Shown here one piece after another: positions 2,141 through 8,583 of a stretch of 64,000 nucleotides of DNA (positions are counted from its first letter, which is position 1; every line of letters begins with the position of its first letter). The position numbers were made by a program, and so were the translations under genes. Origin of the DNA: Negativicutes bacterium (lineage in GTDB: Bacteria > Bacillota > Negativicutes > UBA1444); the NCBI GenBank assembly GCA_963665275.2, contig CAXXIN010000007.1, positions 384,001-448,000 on the forward strand. Reading direction: 5' to 3'. The notes beneath the pieces were generated by a model that was given only the letters and a program-made list of their open reading frames with translations, did no database searches and was not told the DNA's origin.

Positions 2141-3220
2141 ATGTTTGACAAATTCACTGAAATCGAAGTCTTGATTCGAGAAGCCAATTTCATTATGCGT
2201 ATCGCCTTTCTTCTTGTAAGCATGGCGGCTGGCGTTGCATTGAGCCAGTTGATCTTTGCCAGACTGCGCAAGGTGGTCGCCCGGGTTACCGACGGCTCTT
2301 ATCCTCTGGTGCAACGCGCTTTAAGAGGAATTCCCACGGTGTGGGGAATTCTCCTGGGGGGATACGTTGCAATCGAAATTCTCCCCCTCCATCCAAAGAT
2401 GCTGCAGTTCCTGGAAACATTATTTAACGCGATTGGCATCTTGTCCCTGACGATCATGGGCGCGCGACTGTTATCTGGTTTGCTCACCCAAAAGGTTCAA
2501 AAAACAGCCGGGACTTTTGCTTCCACTTCTATCCTGGTCACAACCATTGAATTGATTGTTTATATCACAGGCTCATTATTTTTGCTCCAGACCTTCGGGG
2601 TCTCGATCACGCCGTTGCTCACAGCTCTAGGCGTTGGTGGTTTGGCGGTAGCGCTCGCGCTGCAGGATACTCTGTCGAATTTATTTTCCGGCATCAATAT
2701 TCTGCTGTCCAAGCAAATCAAGATCAGCGACTATGTCAAACTGTCGACTGGTGAAGAAGGAACCGTTGTAGACATGAACTGGCGCAACACCACCATCAAA
2801 CTGCCGTCTGACAACATGGTTGTCGTTCCCAATCAAAAAATCGCGAGTTCCATCCTCACCAACTTTGCATTGCCTTATGCAGAGTGCTCCATCGTCATTC
2901 CGGTGGGAGTCAGTTATGACAGCGACCTGGAACAGGTCGAAAAAACCACCTCTGCTGTTGCCAAAGAAGTGCTTCAGGACACTGAGGGCGGTGTCGGCAG
3001 CTTTGAGCCGTTCATCCGCTATGGCAGTTTTGCTCCATCCAGCATCACCTTTAACGTCATCCTGCGTGTTAAAAGCGTGACGAATCAAGCCCTGATCCAA
3101 CACGAATTTATCAAGCGGCTTCACCTACGATATCGGCAGGAAGGAATCGAAATTCCCTTCCCCACAACTTCTGTGAGGCTTCAACAAACGACCCTTACAG
3201 ATGAAACAACCCCAAAATAA
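2141..3220 (+). CDS. mscS: Small-conductance mechanosensitive channel (MscS family)
   Basis: LGVGGLAVALALQDTLSNLFSG, GTVVDMNWRNT, VPN and GIEIPFP motifs. Confidence 0.92.
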   Translation: MFDKFTEIEVLIREANFIMRIAFLLVSMAAGVALSQLIFARLRKVVARVTDGSYPLVQRALRGIPTVWGILLGGYVAIEILPLHPKMLQFLETLFNAIGILSLTIMGARLLSGLLTQKVQKTAGTFASTSILVTTIELIVYITGSLFLLQTFGVSITPLLTALGVGGLAVALALQDTLSNLFSGINILLSKQIKISDYVKLSTGEEGTVVDMNWRNTTIKLPSDNMVVVPNQKIASSILTNFALPYAECSIVIPVGVSYDSDLEQVEKTTSAVAKEVLQDTEGGVGSFEPFIRYGSFAPSSITFNVILRVKSVTNQALIQHEFIKRLHLRYRQEGIEIPFPTTSVRLQQTTLTDETTPK

Positions 3221-3230
3221 AATTATGGCG

Positions 3231-3272
3231 AAAAAAAACGAAGGGGAAGATTTTCATCTTCCCCTTTTTTAA
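3231..3272. terminator. Bidirectional intrinsic terminator
   Basis: AAGGGGAAGAT-TTTC-ATCTTCCCCTT hairpin with an A-run on the left and a T-run on the right. Confidence 0.85.
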
Positions 3273-3536
3273 AGCGACCACCCTTACAGCTGAGGCTGGA
3301 TATCTTCACTTGCTATTCTGATAGGTCTTTAACCTCCATGGGAATTGCTTGGCTTTTGCTTCGTCCAGGTTTTGGGTATTAGGTTGTAGGTTTCGTGTCT
3401 TGCGGTTTGATCTCGGGGTATAGGGAAAACACTCTCCTTGATGGACTGGTTTCGACGTGTACAAACTCGGAAAGATTGATCTTTCGTGGGTTTGTCTTTT
3501 CGCTGGAACCTTAAGTCGCTGTAAGGATGGTGCTTG
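3231..3536 (-). ncRNA. Candidate independently transcribed structured ncRNA of unknown family
   Basis: Minus-strand TTGCAA-17-TACAAT promoter (3570-3542); 5' end 3535-3518 pairs with 3290-3272 (18 bp); internal hairpins; ends at a U-tailed terminator. Confidence 0.6.
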
Positions 3537-3541
3537 ACTAT

Positions 3542-3570
3542 ATTGTAGCACAGTAATCAGAATTTTGCAA
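3542..3570 (-). promoter_or_regulatory. Sigma-A-type promoter for the ncRNA candidate
   Basis: TTGCAA-N17-TACAAT with TG extended -10 (TGTGCTACAAT). Confidence 0.7.
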
Positions 3571-3601
3571 TAACTATTCAAGATATTTTCAATCGGCTTT
3601 A

Positions 3602-5809
3602 TTAGCCGTTCGGTCCACGGAAACGGACACGCAAATCTTGCGGCTGCAAGGTCTTGCCTGTCAGAACATTGAGTATCGTATTGGCCGTTGCGTTGGGCGT
3701 AATGATGAGATGAACCATTTCCCCTTCGGTCTCGCCTGTGCCTGACGCCAGTCCTCCCAACATGTTGAACTTCAGATTGGTGAATTCCGTCTGGCGTCCT
3801 CGTTTGGTAAAGTTTCCTGTCAAGCCGCTGAAAGCGATTCCCTTGACGCTGCCGGCATTCATCTTGAAGTTTCCATCACCGCTGGCTTTGTCCCAGTCGC
3901 CGACGCCAGCGATGGTCGCCGCAAAATCAGCACGCCCCTGCACATCACGATCCGTCAGTTGCGCCGCATCAATGTTCTGTCCAGTGAGCTGCTGCCGATA
4001 CTCCATCGTCTTCGGAACGACCGTCCCGTTCAGATTGATCGTGCCGCCGAGGCACTGAGCCCGCCCGCCCGCCAACGTAAGTAGCCCATCAACATAGCTG
4101 AATCCGGCGCTCGCACCGGAAAAAGCCAGTTGGCCCAATGCACCGGACGCGATCTGGAAGTTGCCGCGGGCCTGATTTTTTTCTGGAGTTCCTGTCACCG
4201 TTGCCTGAAAAGCAATCACTCCTTTTAACGCACTATTCGGATTGAATGCCGTTGCGTTGAGTCCAGAGGAGGATATGTTCAGGCTGACCTGGGGCGAAGC
4301 CCCACCTGCGGCCAAAGTGATCACCCCGTTGACCGAAAGACGTTGCCCTGACAAAGTTACGCCGACATTGGACAAATCCACACGGTTTCCTTGTTTATGA
4401 AAGCTGCCTGTTGCATTGGCAATGGTATAGTCGGAAATCGTTCCGGCCGGTACGGAAAAAGCACCACTCGCTGCCATAGTATCCGCACTTCCCTGCCCAG
4501 TAACGGTCGCATTGAAATCCATCCGGCCAGACAAGCCTTTATTCGTCAAAATCGATCCGTCAACATTCTGGCCGGATACATTCAGATTATAGGCTGAAGA
4601 TTTGGGCACTATGGTTCCGGTAATACCAACGGATCCGCCCAACGCTTTTGCATTTGAGTTGGATAACGTGAGTTTGCCGTCGGCATAGCCGAAAGAGCCC
4701 TCGGCGTCGGTTATTGGATTGGCGTCGAACTGACCGCTGGCCATATTGAAAGTCCCCTGCGCCGTCGGTTTGTCGAGCGTCCCGCCCACATCCGCGTGAA
4801 AGGAAGCAGCCCCGTTAAGCGACGCTTTCGGTCCTGCCAGTGAGGCTACATTCATCCCTGCGGAACTGATCTGCAACGCCAGAACTGGTGATGCCGGCGT
4901 GAAATCGATAGAGCCGGCCACGGAAAGTTTATTTCCGTCGACCACGGCAGCGGCATCCTGCAGGATAACCTTTTGTCCCTGCAGTTTCAGTATGGCGGTT
5001 CCCTCTTTGAGAGCCATTCCCTGCAAATCCATGCCTAAGCCGGACAGCATAGCCTCGCCTGTCATTTGGACACCAGACTTTTCCTGGGTCACATTCCCCT
5101 TAATATCCTTAAGCGTTCCGGCCAGCAACTTGGGGTTACCGGCTGCTACAGGCAACAATGCCTGCACTTCGCTGAGTTCTATCGCATCGATTTTCAAAGC
5201 CAATTGAGTTTTCCCCTCGGAAATCCAGTTTCCTTGGACTGAGATTGTGCTGTTCCCCATTTTCCCTTTCAAATCGACCGCTACGGCAGGTGGCGCTGCA
5301 TAATCCAGCTCGCCCGAAATTCCAGAGAATTCGCGTTTCCAGTTCGGTGTAGAGACAGCAACCGCTGCATCTTTCAGAACGACACTCCCACGAAACAGCG
5401 AGGGGCGCTCCGCCTGAGGTTTCACCATCTCCTGAAGGTTCCATTTGCCGGCTTTATCGATATTCAATACCAGGTTTAGTTTTTCAACAGTAATCTGCTT
5501 CACACTATCGATCCCAAAACGGCCCCCGAGGAGGTCACTGAACTTGTAACTGACACTGATCTCATCACTTTCGGCAATTTTCACGTTCTTCGAATCGAAT
5601 AGCACAACTTTTTTCAGCACCGCTGATCCCAAAGCGGAAAAATCAAAATTACCAATTTCAATGCGCCCATTAATGGAAGCGTTAACCTGCGATAGCAAGA
5701 GTCCCTGCACACCGGCGAGAACACGGGGAGCCACCATCTTCCAGGCAACACCCGCCGCAATCAGTAAAGCAACAGCACTTGCCAGTATGATTTTTTGTGT
5801 TTTGGACAT
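3602..5809 (-). CDS. AsmA/TamB-like beta-rich envelope bridge protein
   Basis: Single N-terminal TM anchor followed by ~700 aa of Gly-rich beta-strand repeats; AsmA-like 'GKWNLQ' motif; GGAGG RBS before MSKTQ. Confidence 0.75.
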   Translation of the reverse strand: MSKTQKIILASAVALLIAAGVAWKMVAPRVLAGVQGLLLSQVNASINGRIEIGNFDFSALGSAVLKKVVLFDSKNVKIAESDEISVSYKFSDLLGGRFGIDSVKQITVEKLNLVLNIDKAGKWNLQEMVKPQAERPSLFRGSVVLKDAAVAVSTPNWKREFSGISGELDYAAPPAVAVDLKGKMGNSTISVQGNWISEGKTQLALKIDAIELSEVQALLPVAAGNPKLLAGTLKDIKGNVTQEKSGVQMTGEAMLSGLGMDLQGMALKEGTAILKLQGQKVILQDAAAVVDGNKLSVAGSIDFTPASPVLALQISSAGMNVASLAGPKASLNGAASFHADVGGTLDKPTAQGTFNMASGQFDANPITDAEGSFGYADGKLTLSNSNAKALGGSVGITGTIVPKSSAYNLNVSGQNVDGSILTNKGLSGRMDFNATVTGQGSADTMAASGAFSVPAGTISDYTIANATGSFHKQGNRVDLSNVGVTLSGQRLSVNGVITLAAGGASPQVSLNISSSGLNATAFNPNSALKGVIAFQATVTGTPEKNQARGNFQIASGALGQLAFSGASAGFSYVDGLLTLAGGRAQCLGGTINLNGTVVPKTMEYRQQLTGQNIDAAQLTDRDVQGRADFAATIAGVGDWDKASGDGNFKMNAGSVKGIAFSGLTGNFTKRGRQTEFTNLKFNMLGGLASGTGETEGEMVHLIITPNATANTILNVLTGKTLQPQDLRVRFRGPNG

Positions 5810-5971
5810 ATGAAACACCTCCATTTGTTCATTTCGTGGTTACCGCTTCAAAATCCTCGCTGCATAACTCATATTGGCAATCTACCTGCAGATTCTCACG
5901 GGCTATATTAATGCTGCATTTCATTTCTATTGACCCTCCTGCTTCAATTTGATAGAATTATTTCAAATAAG

Positions 5972-6050
5972 ATAACTACAGGATCAGGCCGTCGGTAATA
6001 CCGGCGCGTCGGGCTAACAAGCAGCAGGTTATGCCTGTGGGACCTTTTAA
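5972..6050 (+). promoter_or_regulatory. NiCo (czcD-motif) Ni/Co/Fe-sensing riboswitch
   Basis: GAUCAGGC-[CGUCGGU/ACCGGCG stem]-GUCGGGCU..AGCAG-[CAGG/CCUG]-UGGGAC four-way-junction pattern directly upstream of a CDF exporter; TTGACC..TAGAAT promoter upstream. Confidence 0.85.
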
Positions 6051-6132
6051 AAGGTTTCGCGGGCATATTTTATGTGTTGCAGGGGTTCTTTGACCGATAT
6101 CCACCCAAATTCAGTATATGAGGAGCATGGCA

Positions 6133-7035
6133 ATGCCGGATTCAACGCTGCAAAAAATCAAATGGGTATTGTGGGTCATCTTATTTGCCAATCTGGCGGT
6201 CGCGGGAGTAAAGATCGTCGTCGGGCAACTGATCCAAAGCGCCAGTCTCACGGCAGATGGCTTTCACTCTTTGACTGACGGAATCTCCAACATCGTCGGT
6301 CTTATCGGCATTCAATTTGCATCCCAACCAATTGACGAAAAACATCCCTATGGTCATCGCAAATATGAGTTTGTCACCGGCCTGTTCATCGGATTCATGC
6401 TGCTAATTATCGCCGCTCTTGTTCTTTACGAAGCCATTGATAAATTTGCGCATCCTGTTTCCCCTGACATTACGATCGTCAGCCTCATCGCATTGATTGC
6501 CACTCTCATCATTAATATTTTCGTTTGCCTCTACGAATATCGCCAGGGGCAGAAGCTGGGCAGCGCCATTTTGATTTCTGATTCCCTCCATACCCGCAGC
6601 GACGTCTTCGTTTCAATCAGCGTCTTATTCACCCTGTTAGGCATCAAATTCGGTCTGCCGCCAATCATCGATCCTATCGCCTCCCTGGTTGTCGCCGCTT
6701 TCATCATTCGCGCAGCCGTTGAAATCATTCGTTCCACCAGTGAAGTGCTCGTCGACAAGGCCGTCGCAGATACAGATACAATCCGTAATATTGCTCTCAC
6801 TTTTCCGGAGGTGCACGGCGTTCATGATATTCGAAGCCGTGGCACTGAACAGGATCTCTATATCGATATGCACGTTCTGATCGATCCCAATATGGAGGTC
6901 GGTGAGTCTCACAAACTTTGTCACGAGGTGGAGCAAAAAATCTGTCAGGAACTGCAAGTAAAAGCGCGTGTCATGATCCACATGGAGCCTTTTCGCAAAC
7001 ACACTCCTGCTCACCATGGAAACCCGCAGACATAA
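6133..7035 (+). CDS. Cation diffusion facilitator (CDF, FieF/CzcD-like) metal exporter
   Basis: ADGFHSLTD, HPYGHRKYE, DSLHTRSD motifs and C-terminal HMEP. Confidence 0.93.
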   Translation: MPDSTLQKIKWVLWVILFANLAVAGVKIVVGQLIQSASLTADGFHSLTDGISNIVGLIGIQFASQPIDEKHPYGHRKYEFVTGLFIGFMLLIIAALVLYEAIDKFAHPVSPDITIVSLIALIATLIINIFVCLYEYRQGQKLGSAILISDSLHTRSDVFVSISVLFTLLGIKFGLPPIIDPIASLVVAAFIIRAAVEIIRSTSEVLVDKAVADTDTIRNIALTFPEVHGVHDIRSRGTEQDLYIDMHVLIDPNMEVGESHKLCHEVEQKICQELQVKARVMIHMEPFRKHTPAHHGNPQT

Positions 7036-7088
7036 TTCAAAGTTTGACAGCAGGGAAAAAATTTGTTATTCTTTTTTCAATCGAATAG

Positions 7089-7195
7089 CACGATATGGAA
7101 CTGACGGATAAGTGGAATTAACCACATGAACTGTATCGGAAGGATAGTCGACCGTCTGGGCAACATTTTTGTTTGCGCAGACGGTTTTTTGTTTG
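7089..7195 (+). promoter_or_regulatory. ZMP/ZTP (pfl) riboswitch 1 with intrinsic terminator
   Basis: CGAUAUGG-AACUGACGG..GUGG..CCAC..CUGUAUCG, then GUCGACCGUCUGGGCA, then a terminator (CCGUCUG..CAGACGG UUUUUU). Confidence 0.9.
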
Positions 7196-7210
7196 CCAAA
7201 ATTAAATCAG

Positions 7211-7315
7211 TACGATACAGAACTGGCGGATAAAGTGGATCAAACCACGTGGGACTGTATCGGGGAACAAGCCGACCGCCTGGGCAACATGCGTTTGTTC
7301 AGGCGGCTATTTTTA
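7211..7315 (+). promoter_or_regulatory. ZMP/ZTP (pfl) riboswitch 2 with intrinsic terminator
   Basis: CGAUACAG-AACUGGCGG..GUGG..CCAC..CUGUAUCG, then GCCGACCGCCUGGGCA, then a terminator (CCGCCUG..CAGGCGG CUAUUUUU). Confidence 0.9.
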
Positions 7316-7359
7316 TGCTGCCGGGTAACGCAAAAAACGAAAAGGGAGCGTGCTCGACA

Positions 7360-8583
7360 ATGAAAAACAGGTGGCTCATCGCATCTTCCGCAGTCGGAAT
7401 CCATATCTGCATCGGCAGCGTATACGCCTGGAGCGTACTGACCAAACCGATCATGTTGCACCTCGGGATCAGTCTCAAGGAAACCCAGTGGACATTTTCG
7501 CTGGCAATTTTGTTTCTGGGCCTTTCTGCTGCATTCTTGGGTGGGTGGGTCGAAAAATACGGCCCCCGAAAATCCGGTCTTGCTGCCACAATGTTCTTCT
7601 GCGCCGGCATGTTCGGAACTGCCCTGGCAGTCTATATGAAGAGTTTGCCGTTGCTATATCTTTTTTATGGCGCCATTGGCGGCATTGGTCTCGGTATTGG
7701 TTACATCACGCCGGTATCCACGCTGGTGAAGTGGTTCCCGGAAAAACGGGGATTTGCGACCGGCATTGCCATCATGGGCTTCGGCTTGGCCAGTCTCGTT
7801 GCCGGCCCGCTCATTCAATTCCTGTTGCAACAATATGGTCTGATCACAACCTTCGTGACTCTTGGCTTGCTTTATATGATGATCATGATTCCTTCCTCCC
7901 TGTATCTGGCCCCACCCCTGAAAACATGCATTATTGAAACTGAGGCCTCACTGCGGCACTCTCTCGCCGGAGTAACGCAGGTTACGGCCACTGCTGCCAT
8001 GAAAACCTGGCAATTTTGGACCTTGTGGTGGATGTTATTCACGAACATCACCTGTGGAATTGGCCTGCTCAGTGTTGCCTCCCCCATGGCCCAGGAAACG
8101 GTTGGCATGTCGCCGCTGATGGCCGCGACGATGGTTGGAGTCATCGGGTTCGTCAACGGGGCCGGGCGTCTTTTTTGGGCATCCATTTCTGATTACCTTG
8201 GCCGGGCAAATACCTATATCGCTTTTTTCATCATTCAGGGTTTCGCCTTCCTGCTACTGGCCAAAACGACAGATGGCATGTTGTTTCAGTTTTTGGTCTA
8301 CCTGATCATCTCCTGTTATGGCGGAGGTTTTTCCACAATCCCCGCTTTTTTGAGCGACCTATTTGGCACTAAAGAGCTGAGTGCCATTCATGGGAAAATA
8401 TTAACCGCCTGGGCGGCCGCGGGAGTCGTTGGTCCCTTGTTTGTTGCCTGGATCAAAGATACGACGAATAGTTACAATGCCACGCTGCTAGTTTTTTCCC
8501 TGTGCTTTGTAATTTCGCTGGTAGTCGCCACGGTTCTGAGATTAAAACAGCCTGCAACAACAGCCAGCGAGCTCTCTCTTTAG
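7360..8583 (+). CDS. OFA-family MFS transporter (oxalate/formate antiporter-like)
   Basis: GSVYAWS, GYITPVSTLVKWFPEKRG and YGGGF motifs; 12 TM; AAGGGAG RBS before ATG at 7360. Confidence 0.92.
   Translation: MKNRWLIASSAVGIHICIGSVYAWSVLTKPIMLHLGISLKETQWTFSLAILFLGLSAAFLGGWVEKYGPRKSGLAATMFFCAGMFGTALAVYMKSLPLLYLFYGAIGGIGLGIGYITPVSTLVKWFPEKRGFATGIAIMGFGLASLVAGPLIQFLLQQYGLITTFVTLGLLYMMIMIPSSLYLAPPLKTCIIETEASLRHSLAGVTQVTATAAMKTWQFWTLWWMLFTNITCGIGLLSVASPMAQETVGMSPLMAATMVGVIGFVNGAGRLFWASISDYLGRANTYIAFFIIQGFAFLLLAKTTDGMLFQFLVYLIISCYGGGFSTIPAFLSDLFGTKELSAIHGKILTAWAAAGVVGPLFVAWIKDTTNSYNATLLVFSLCFVISLVVATVLRLKQPATTASELSL

Follow-up and report, generated by a model that had tools for sequence, protein, structure and literature searches.

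6S RNA is an abundant, stable RNA of about 200 nucleotides (nt) with paired 5′ and 3′ ends and a strong promoter of its own, and Ms1 of mycobacteria, at about 300 nt, is very abundant, adopts a 6S-like fold and binds the core of RNA polymerase. Bacterial Y RNAs of the YrlA type, which are bound by Ro60/Rsr, are closed by a stem of both ends that carries a bulge or internal loop and encloses a variable, largely single-stranded interior. Other stable RNAs act as protein-titrating sponges, such as CsrB/RsmZ for CsrA and CrcZ for Hfq/Crc. The element described here lies in a 64,000-nt stretch of a Negativicutes bacterium (contig CAXXIN010000007.1; the window, meaning the whole stretch analysed), in which positions 3535–3272 of the minus strand constitute a stand-alone structured non-coding RNA (ncRNA) gene of about 260 nt. 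What is new is the RNA family, which had not been catalogued before and occurs in many Negativicutes and also in at least one further small class of Bacillota.

The window RNA shares individual traits with each of these systems. Like 6S, it has paired ends and its own promoter, but it combines one 5′ hairpin with a long unstructured region where 6S has a central bubble. As in Y RNAs, its closing stem, P1, is formed from both ends and contains a bulge or internal loop. This amounts to no more than a resemblance: the window RNA is much longer, is far more abundant as judged by its orthologue in Sporomusa ovata, lacks a transfer RNA (tRNA)-like module and occurs in genomes without TROVE (five of five), and a Ro/Y RNA was rejected because the TROVE gene is absent from all five RNA-bearing genomes. 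With the sponges it has in common that it is non-coding and displays short repeated single-stranded words whose number drifts by duplication; however, the repeated word is not the GGA of CsrB/RsmZ (three GGA occur in the window RNA) and differs between clades, and CsrB, RsmZ and CrcZ have nothing equivalent to the large, invariant and structured core. OLE, raiA, ROOL and GOLLD likewise occur widely in anaerobic Bacillota at high expression, and their function was obscure when they were discovered; the window RNA is much less ornate than they are, only two of its helices being conserved. Ms1 is similar in size, abundance and existence alongside other stable RNAs but belongs to another phylum, the relation having been compared through Rfam only.

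Gene structure, promoter and terminator

The RNA gene is housed, on the minus strand, in a 381-nt gap between two convergent genes, and its parts and flanks are arranged as follows.

3570–3565, minus strand: −35 hexamer TTGCAA (promoter consensus scan)
3550–3542, minus strand: extended −10 element, consisting of TG (3550–3549), C and TACAAT (3547–3542) (promoter consensus scan)
3535–3518, minus strand: 5′ strand of P1, AAGCACCAUCCUUACAGC, with transcription predicted to start at about 3535
3517–3444, minus strand: P2, a long irregular hairpin (fold and covariation)
3439–3426, minus strand: conserved single-stranded motif AAGGAGAGUGUUUU (regular-expression search of homologues)
3425–3338, minus strand: variable low-complexity linker, A/C-rich in this genus, with ACCC, AACC and AUCCA words (composition and word enrichment)
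3337–3333, minus strand: GGAGG word in the 3′ part of the RNA (linker word count)
3290–3272, minus strand: 3′ strand of P1, GCUGUAAGGGUGGUCGCUU, with C3276 bulged (pairing with AAGCACCAUCCUUACAGC, fold and covariation)
3266–3231, minus strand: intrinsic terminator, an 11-bp stem (3266–3241) with a 4-nt loop and the U-rich tail CGUUUUUUUU (terminator scan)
3602–5824, minus strand: 740-codon open reading frame (ORF) flanking the gap, with a weak DUF748 match (33.7 bits, below the Pfam cut-off of 50)
2141–3220, plus strand: MscS-type channel gene flanking the gap on the other side

A preliminary description of this locus, made from the sequence alone, had proposed a TTGCAA-17-TACAAT promoter and a U-tailed terminator, and both are recovered by the scans. 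The −35 and −10 elements are separated by a 17-nt spacer that contains the TG extension and together match the consensus at 9 of 12 positions; the scan returned three promoter-like sites, with 1.0 expected in shuffled sequence. This arrangement is kept in homologues. Among the 82 homologous loci having enough flank, TAnnnT lies 4–10 nt 5′ of the RNA in all 82, the TG extension is present in 76, and at a 17-nt spacing at least four of six −35 positions match TTGACA in 51. A terminator-like hairpin with a T run follows P1 in 79 of the same 82 loci. The gene has its own sigma-A-type promoter of the extended −10 kind, and an intrinsic terminator ends its transcription; the start near 3535 is a prediction from the spacing to the −10 element.

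It is extremely improbable that the RNA is not an independent gene and represents instead a 3′ untranslated region (UTR) or processed tail of the DUF748-like gene (3602–5824), or the messenger RNA (mRNA) of a small protein encoded by an ORF at 3306–3581. The DUF748-like gene does lie upstream on the same strand, with the RNA 67 nt downstream, and 11 of the 12 loci examined within the genus share this arrangement, but the synteny is gone outside the genus, the RNA's own promoter is conserved in 82 of 82 loci, and in S. ovata the depth upstream reaches at most about 0.2% of that of the RNA. Similarly, the 91-codon ORF overlaps the RNA, but its start lies upstream of the −10 element, Pfam returns no match for it and it is unconserved. 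The longest ORF has a median of 29 codons across 83 homologues, none of it conserved, in keeping with the earlier remark that no convincing ORF is present.

Secondary structure and covariation

The minimum-free-energy fold of the minus strand reaches −83.8 kcal/mol (z = −6.1, with none of 100 shuffles as good; z = −4.7 for the plus strand), and its outer helix is P1, an 18-bp closing stem that pairs 3535–3518 with 3290–3272 and includes a U3527–G3281 wobble and the C3276 bulge. This closing stem had been noticed beforehand at the same positions, and it covaries. The minus orientation had been deduced from the U-G wobble in the stem; that argument proved correct and is also supported by the covariance-model scores, 180.9 bits on the minus strand versus 27.2 on the plus strand.

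Structure statistics were taken from the cleaned alignment of the broader covariance model, R2 (69 matches, 67 distinct sequences), with 38 model pairs counted. Standard pairs occupy 89.3% of cells, versus 31–48% when the 3′ partners are slid by one to three columns, and both-side changes occur in 27 of the 38 pairs among the 67 distinct homologues. The covariation score is 0.273 versus 0.147 in shuffled alignments, and none of 500 shuffles reaches 0.273; compensatory changes of this kind maintain both the closing stem and the hairpin P2. An alignment fitted to a covariance model tilts somewhat toward structure; double changes are nonetheless plain in the raw sequences, where one P1 pair is C-G in 38 and U-A in 29 and further variants of the stem read CAGCGUCC/GGACGCUC.

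P1 is 95.7% paired across the 67 distinct sequences and changes on both sides in 8 of its 18 pairs. Its sequence conservation far exceeds what pairing needs, with three pairs invariant and several others kept in 63–66 of the 67 sequences. Four pairs from its end, opposite A5, the stem carries a bulged pyrimidine or a 1×2 internal loop.

P2, comprising helices 2–6, is built from a GACU...AGUC base, GGUU/AACC and AAAC/GUUU segments and an apical GAAAGA-UCAA-UCUUUC hairpin. Pairing within it ranges from 62 to 92%, both partners change in 19 of its 20 pairs, and by inspection its middle helix is a palindromic UUGCAA duplex in many members. Among the internal hairpins named in the preliminary description, GAAAGA-UCAA-UCUUUC is the tip of this covarying helix, and its flanking ACAAAC/GUUUGU pairing holds in part. 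The proposed GGAGA-GUGU-UUUCC hairpin turned out to be mostly G-U pairing against a U run, with a both-side change in one cell alone (genome G012, pair 5, CG for AU); the element is family-wide as a sequence motif, not as a helix. AGGU..ACCU is not kept in genus relatives, as judged from an alignment by inspection. Scanning all column pairs of the 67-row alignment yields no further helix or pseudoknot, G-U noise alone being detected. The family core consists of the near-invariant P1, the 5′ hairpin P2 and the single-stranded motif RGGNUAGUGUUUUUU.

This architecture bears on the idea of a structural, self-assembling or catalytic RNA that would work without a dedicated protein, by analogy with ROOL, GOLLD and OLE in the literature. 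The palindromic UUGCAA duplex in P2 could allow dimer contacts, the RNA is very abundant in S. ovata, and a search for a partner protein found none. However, just two helices are conserved, over half of the molecule has no conserved structure, and this structure-poor part varies from 75 to 271 nt, unlike in the ornate RNAs, which makes such a role quite unlikely.

Relation to known RNA families

Rfam 15 returns nothing at the RNA in the window at the gathering score. Relaxing the threshold to E ≤ 10 over 3100–3750 gives six chance-level matches, all far below the gathering score and situated on or beside the terminator, and at E ≤ 0.1 no family falls on the RNA itself at ten homologous loci. 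No Rfam family therefore identifies the RNA, and the suggestion of a new family made in the preliminary description is borne out. The models of OLE, ROOL, GOLLD, raiA and HEARO are without a match at the gathering score in the window and, at E ≤ 0.1, on the RNA in the ten homologous loci. A retron or other reverse transcriptase-associated ncRNA was also rejected, as the neighbours are the DUF748-like and MscS channel genes and no neighbour is conserved across clades.

Additionally, the RNA had been described as lacking the hallmarks of transfer-messenger RNA (tmRNA), RNase P and signal recognition particle (SRP) RNA, and genes for all three lie elsewhere in the same genome (large SRP RNA, 99.9 bits; RNase P, 281.7 bits; tmRNA, 187.7 bits). 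ARAGORN detects no tRNA-like gene in 3100–3700.

Identity as a further RNA of the 6S type, long and bound to RNA polymerase, is very improbable; a long 6S-like RNA was among the earlier guesses. The end-formed closing stem and the high abundance would suit it, and in one genome the gene adjoins a 6S gene; yet the 6S model (RF00013) has no match in 3100–3750 even at E ≤ 10, a canonical 6S gene of 111.4 bits is present on another contig of the same genome (G000:C4:124778–124959), and the RNA has no central bubble between two long helices.

Full-text searches of the literature gave no description of the RNA, this coverage extending neither to supplementary motif tables, which might list it, nor to subscription journals. 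Term look-ups in the discovery papers PMC6429828, PMC8632094 and PMC11109978 likewise gave none.

Distribution across Negativicutes and other Bacillota

Homologues were collected with BLAST and with two covariance models, R1 from 13 family sequences and R2 from 22 diverse matches; model searches used the strict filters of Infernal, so that a result of not found does not equal absence. With the 340-nt stretch as query, BLAST matches all 12 of the other genomes from the window's family, and in other families of the class it gives short matches to the two ends of the RNA in 22 of 61 genomes.

The distribution of the RNA family is wide but patchy. R2 is positive in 64 of 151 sampled class genomes, 49 of 125 good-quality genomes, 31 of 67 genera and 16 of 29 families. 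The positive families are f1 (12/12), f3 (1/2), f7 (12/15), f9 (2/2), f11 (4/4), f14 (2/2), f15 (1/1), f16 (3/3), f18 (2/2), f20 (1/1), f21 (1/1), f23 (4/4), f25 (7/8), f26 (3/3), f27 (6/7) and f29 (2/2). Under the strict filters no match was obtained in f13 (0/22), f17 (0/21), f4 (0/10), f24 (0/9), f12 (0/4), f6 and f28 (0/3 each), f2, f8 and f10 (0/2 each), or f5, f19 and f22 (0/1 each). The four large, best-sampled families without a match have small genomes of 1.6–3.4 Mb. In a phylum-wide sample, 6 of 150 other genomes carry the RNA, and one of these carriers, G236, belongs to a separate four-species class of Bacillota in which two of the four species carry it.

Ten genomes of the 151-genome sample have a second copy elsewhere in the genome, and S. 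ovata also has two copies. In one genome the two copies stand in direct tandem, about 140 nt apart (G121:C37:4807–5098 and 5237–5528, minus strand).

A 15-nt pattern scan of genome contigs returned at least 115 stretches, most of those checked being chance matches in unrelated phyla. Among the matches listed, the named carriers are Sporomusa ovata DSM 2662, with two copies, and S. aerivorans, and the carriers that are metagenome-assembled genomes are labelled Sporomusaceae, Selenomonadales, Negativicutes, Veillonellaceae, Bacillota and 'Pelotomaculum sp.'; the named records place the family in Negativicutes. No similar sequence occurs in the plasmid or phage collections searched, and a mobile origin was rejected on this basis.

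Expression and processing of the Sporomusa ovata orthologue

Because public RNA runs exist for S. ovata, the better-scoring of its two copies (L179:1501–1743, minus strand) was examined in three raw RNA sequencing (RNA-seq) runs of one study, compared over 1,051 nt. Bin depths inside the RNA are 0.18–1.28, 0.40–2.77 and 0.48–3.48 million in the three runs, against flank depths of 35–131 downstream and 93–1,979 upstream, the latter at most about 0.2% of the RNA depth. The stretch collects 1,314,449 of 11,970,025, 2,836,484 of 11,431,336 and 3,598,136 of 12,418,657 sampled reads, that is 11%, 25% and 29%; as the libraries may or may not have been depleted of ribosomal RNA (rRNA), these are shares of library reads and not cellular shares. 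Contigs assembled from a run of a second study show the same peak, with a word depth of about 630,000 versus 99 and 493.

For over 99% of reads the first mate maps to the plus strand, which under the usual stranded protocol indicates a minus-strand RNA and matches the model, the promoter and the terminator. In the orthologue, RNA-seq thus documents a massive minus-strand transcript. The proposal of an orphan, independently transcribed structured ncRNA accordingly stands, with promoter, terminator, covariation and strand-specific expression in S. ovata all on its side.

Most molecules end well short of the terminator tail. The main 3′ end, represented by 194,528 to 513,595 molecules per run, is at L179:1505, the C of the P1 internal loop, four nt before the stem end and upstream of the terminator; this position corresponds to the bulge C3276 in the window RNA. 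A minor set of ends falls at L179:1485–1489, within the terminator. Since most S. ovata molecules end inside P1, the terminator is trimmed off. Coverage on the 5′ side stops at 1726–1737, a few nt short of the predicted start at 1743, and some loss of 5′ coverage is usual for such libraries. A circular form was rejected, since a depth of millions included just a few back-joint reads.

The S. ovata orthologue is therefore an extremely abundant RNA of the predicted strand whose 3′ end is trimmed into P1. By homology, abundance and trimming probably extend to the window's own RNA.

One position of the orthologue is variable: at L179:1733, A replaces G on the plus strand in 5–11% of reads (980/21,069, 3,214/36,116 and 4,427/40,752). 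On the RNA this is a C-to-U change in the 5′ strand of P1 that turns a C-G pair into U-G, and it could be strain heterogeneity, a reverse-transcription artefact or a modification.

Conserved motif and variable linker

The most conserved unpaired element lies 3′ of P2 and has the consensus RGGNUAGUGUUUUUUGUUU. The corresponding regular expression matches 68 of 83 homologues, mostly 84–105 nt from the 5′ end (range 70–111), and a column-pair scan of the alignment reveals no covarying partner for it.

Between this motif and the 3′ strand of P1 extends a linker of 75–271 nt that is unalignable between clades. In the window its composition is A 0.40 and C 0.30, and the window's family ranges over A 0.31–0.40 and C 0.20–0.35, with enrichment of ACCC (31 observed versus 9.8 expected), AACC and AUCCA. 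The A/C-rich stretch pointed out in the preliminary description is real but peculiar to this genus: in most other clades the linker is C-poor (0.02–0.20) and U-rich (up to 0.49), and its over-represented words are AAGU (133 observed versus 43 expected), GUUU and CAAG. GGAGG occurs in 10 of 10 non-redundant f1 linkers (0.3 expected), RGAGG-like words are found in several other clades, and GGAGG is missing from Sporomusa-type members. Apart from the fixed GGAGG, AGGA/GGA words are not among the top enriched ones, and three GGA are present in the window RNA.

Linkers frequently hold tandem repeats, which differ between lineages. Examples are runs of GUUUCAA, GUUUUAA and GUUAGAA heptamers (L226:1501–1856, minus strand), a unit of about 46 nt present in roughly five copies (L017:1129–1524, minus strand), GUUA repeats (L014:1516–1803, plus strand) and a repeated 9-nt unit, CUUCAAAUG (L168:1501–1790, minus strand). 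Composition and repeats are kept while sequence is not, which indicates that length, composition and repeats are tolerated or selected.

The linker and the motif could in principle act by base pairing, as in a trans-acting small RNA (sRNA) that binds mRNAs, for example at Shine–Dalgarno (SD) regions. The C-rich and ACCU-like words of the window linker and the conserved single-stranded motif would suit this role, and Hfq is encoded in five of five RNA-bearing genomes tested; but the linker is unconserved and C-poor in most clades, and complementarity within the window's own genome stays at chance level, the best match being 17 nt at E 0.05 and the others at E ≥ 0.8. Moreover, at the main 3′ end in S. 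ovata the terminator hairpin and U tail, both retained in classical Hfq sRNAs, are missing, and the abundance, compared with flanking transcripts only, lies far above them and seems more than such an sRNA needs. A base-pairing function is thus unlikely. Confinement of the C-rich linker to the window's genus also makes the anti-SD sRNA considered earlier unlikely.

The SD-like words AAGGAG and GGAGG raise a different possibility, a translation-linked decoy that would bind the 30S subunit or a ribosome-associated factor. GGAGG is present in all ten non-redundant f1 linkers, but it is missing in Sporomusa-type members; the motif contains AAGGAGAG at 3439–3432, but its GGA varies within the family (GGGUAG, GGUAGAG). 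The near-invariant P1 includes the pairing CACCAUCCUUA / UAAGGAUGGUG, which resembles an SD/anti-SD duplex when compared with what we take to be the 16S 3′ tail, yet the SD-like strand of P1 is base-paired. The abundance in S. ovata is on the scale of ribosome-associated RNAs, whereas a tRNA-like part and a conserved ORF are both missing. Taken together, we consider a decoy function improbable.

A possible ribonucleoprotein scaffold or sponge

Of the roles considered, the one placed first, tentatively, is that of the RNA part of an abundant ribonucleoprotein (RNP), acting as scaffold or sponge; the protein sponge guessed at in the preliminary description thereby becomes the leading reading and is still open. 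The core of P1, P2 and motif would serve as a specific docking and end-protection site for a protein, while short words repeated along the unstructured linker (ACCC/AUCCA here, AAGU/GUUU elsewhere) would provide numerous sites of low specificity at which a single-strand RNA-binding protein is held or titrated. This reading is drawn from several features in combination: a near-invariant end-to-end stem with an internal loop, whose sequence is conserved beyond pairing needs; a conserved single-stranded U-rich motif; end trimming, a very high level and paralogues; and a long, unstructured, repeat-prone arm that retains composition and repeats but not sequence. The end-to-end pairing and trimming resemble those of other stable RNP RNAs.

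In its broadest form, which may be correct but falls short of being probable, the proposal adds the RNA to 6S, SRP, tmRNA and RNase P RNA as a fifth stable RNA at housekeeping level in environmental Negativicutes and in some deep-branching Bacillota, where it would form the RNA subunit of a very abundant RNP not yet described. The end-processed closing stem would bind a dedicated protein, and the repeat-prone single-stranded arm would provide the working surface.

Several observations weigh against the scaffold or sponge. A partner protein was sought among Ro, RRM, Hfq, CsrA and the neighbouring genes, and none was found. Ro/TROVE (PF05731) is absent from five of five RNA-bearing genomes, while control genomes matched. 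RRM proteins occur in two of the five RNA-bearing genomes and not in the window's genome, and an RRM partner was rejected on that count. Hfq is present in all five genomes tested and in 124 of 151 class genomes overall, but also in families without the RNA (21 of 22 genomes in f13, 19 of 21 in f17), so that its co-occurrence with the RNA is non-discriminating. CsrA (PF02599) is found in five of five genomes in a search that covered RNA-bearing genomes only, from which specificity is not derivable. The shift of the linker from C-poor and U-rich to A/C-rich between clades is awkward for one sequence-specific ligand; a ligand that needs just unstructured RNA, or clade-specific ligands, fits better. 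Furthermore, the result of not found in 13 families rests on the strict Infernal filters, the read percentages are not cellular shares, and the data on expression and processing come from S. ovata and not from the organism of the window. The 6S-like, Ro/Y-RNA, classical Hfq-sRNA, coding and 3′-UTR readings are disfavoured.

With regard to Hfq, the S. ovata genome (G154) contains five Hfq-family matches on contig C1, one of them with an internal TAA, and the other four genomes tested contain one each.

Neighbouring genes and other RNA elements

The genes next to the RNA are conserved within the genus only, and no neighbour is conserved across clades; one cross-clade neighbour cluster was discarded as unrelated histidine kinases. 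The DUF748-like gene is directly upstream of the RNA in 11 of 12 same-genus loci and not in other families.

Other structured RNAs occur near the gene in the window and in related genomes. Two ZTP aptamers stand in tandem on the plus strand of the window at 7087–7168 and 7209–7292 (Rfam, 54.5 and 65 bits), just upstream of and overlapping the listed start of an MFS transporter ORF at 7249–8583, and in a genome of the same family a tandem ZTP pair adjoins the new RNA (L013:1740–1944). A NiCo aptamer at 5970–6047 (plus strand; 37.1 bits, gathering score 37) precedes a cation-efflux gene of the CDF family at 6118–7035, a textbook arrangement. In one genome a 6S gene adjoins the new RNA with divergent transcription (L018:1090–1263, minus strand), and in another a tRNA gene and the large SRP RNA gene come after the RNA on its own strand (L228:747–1179, minus strand).

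Biological significance

It is rare for a new bacterial RNA to be expressed as strongly as tmRNA or 6S, and 6S, OLE, raiA and ROOL/GOLLD each opened a line of research. For study, the family has the practical advantages of a clean gene structure and covariation-backed helices. Since S. ovata is a cultivable, genetically studied acetogen with expression evidence for the RNA, pull-down, knock-down and structure probing are feasible straight away. For the organisms that carry it, the finding means that an unannotated RNA can consume a tenth to a quarter of transcriptome reads.

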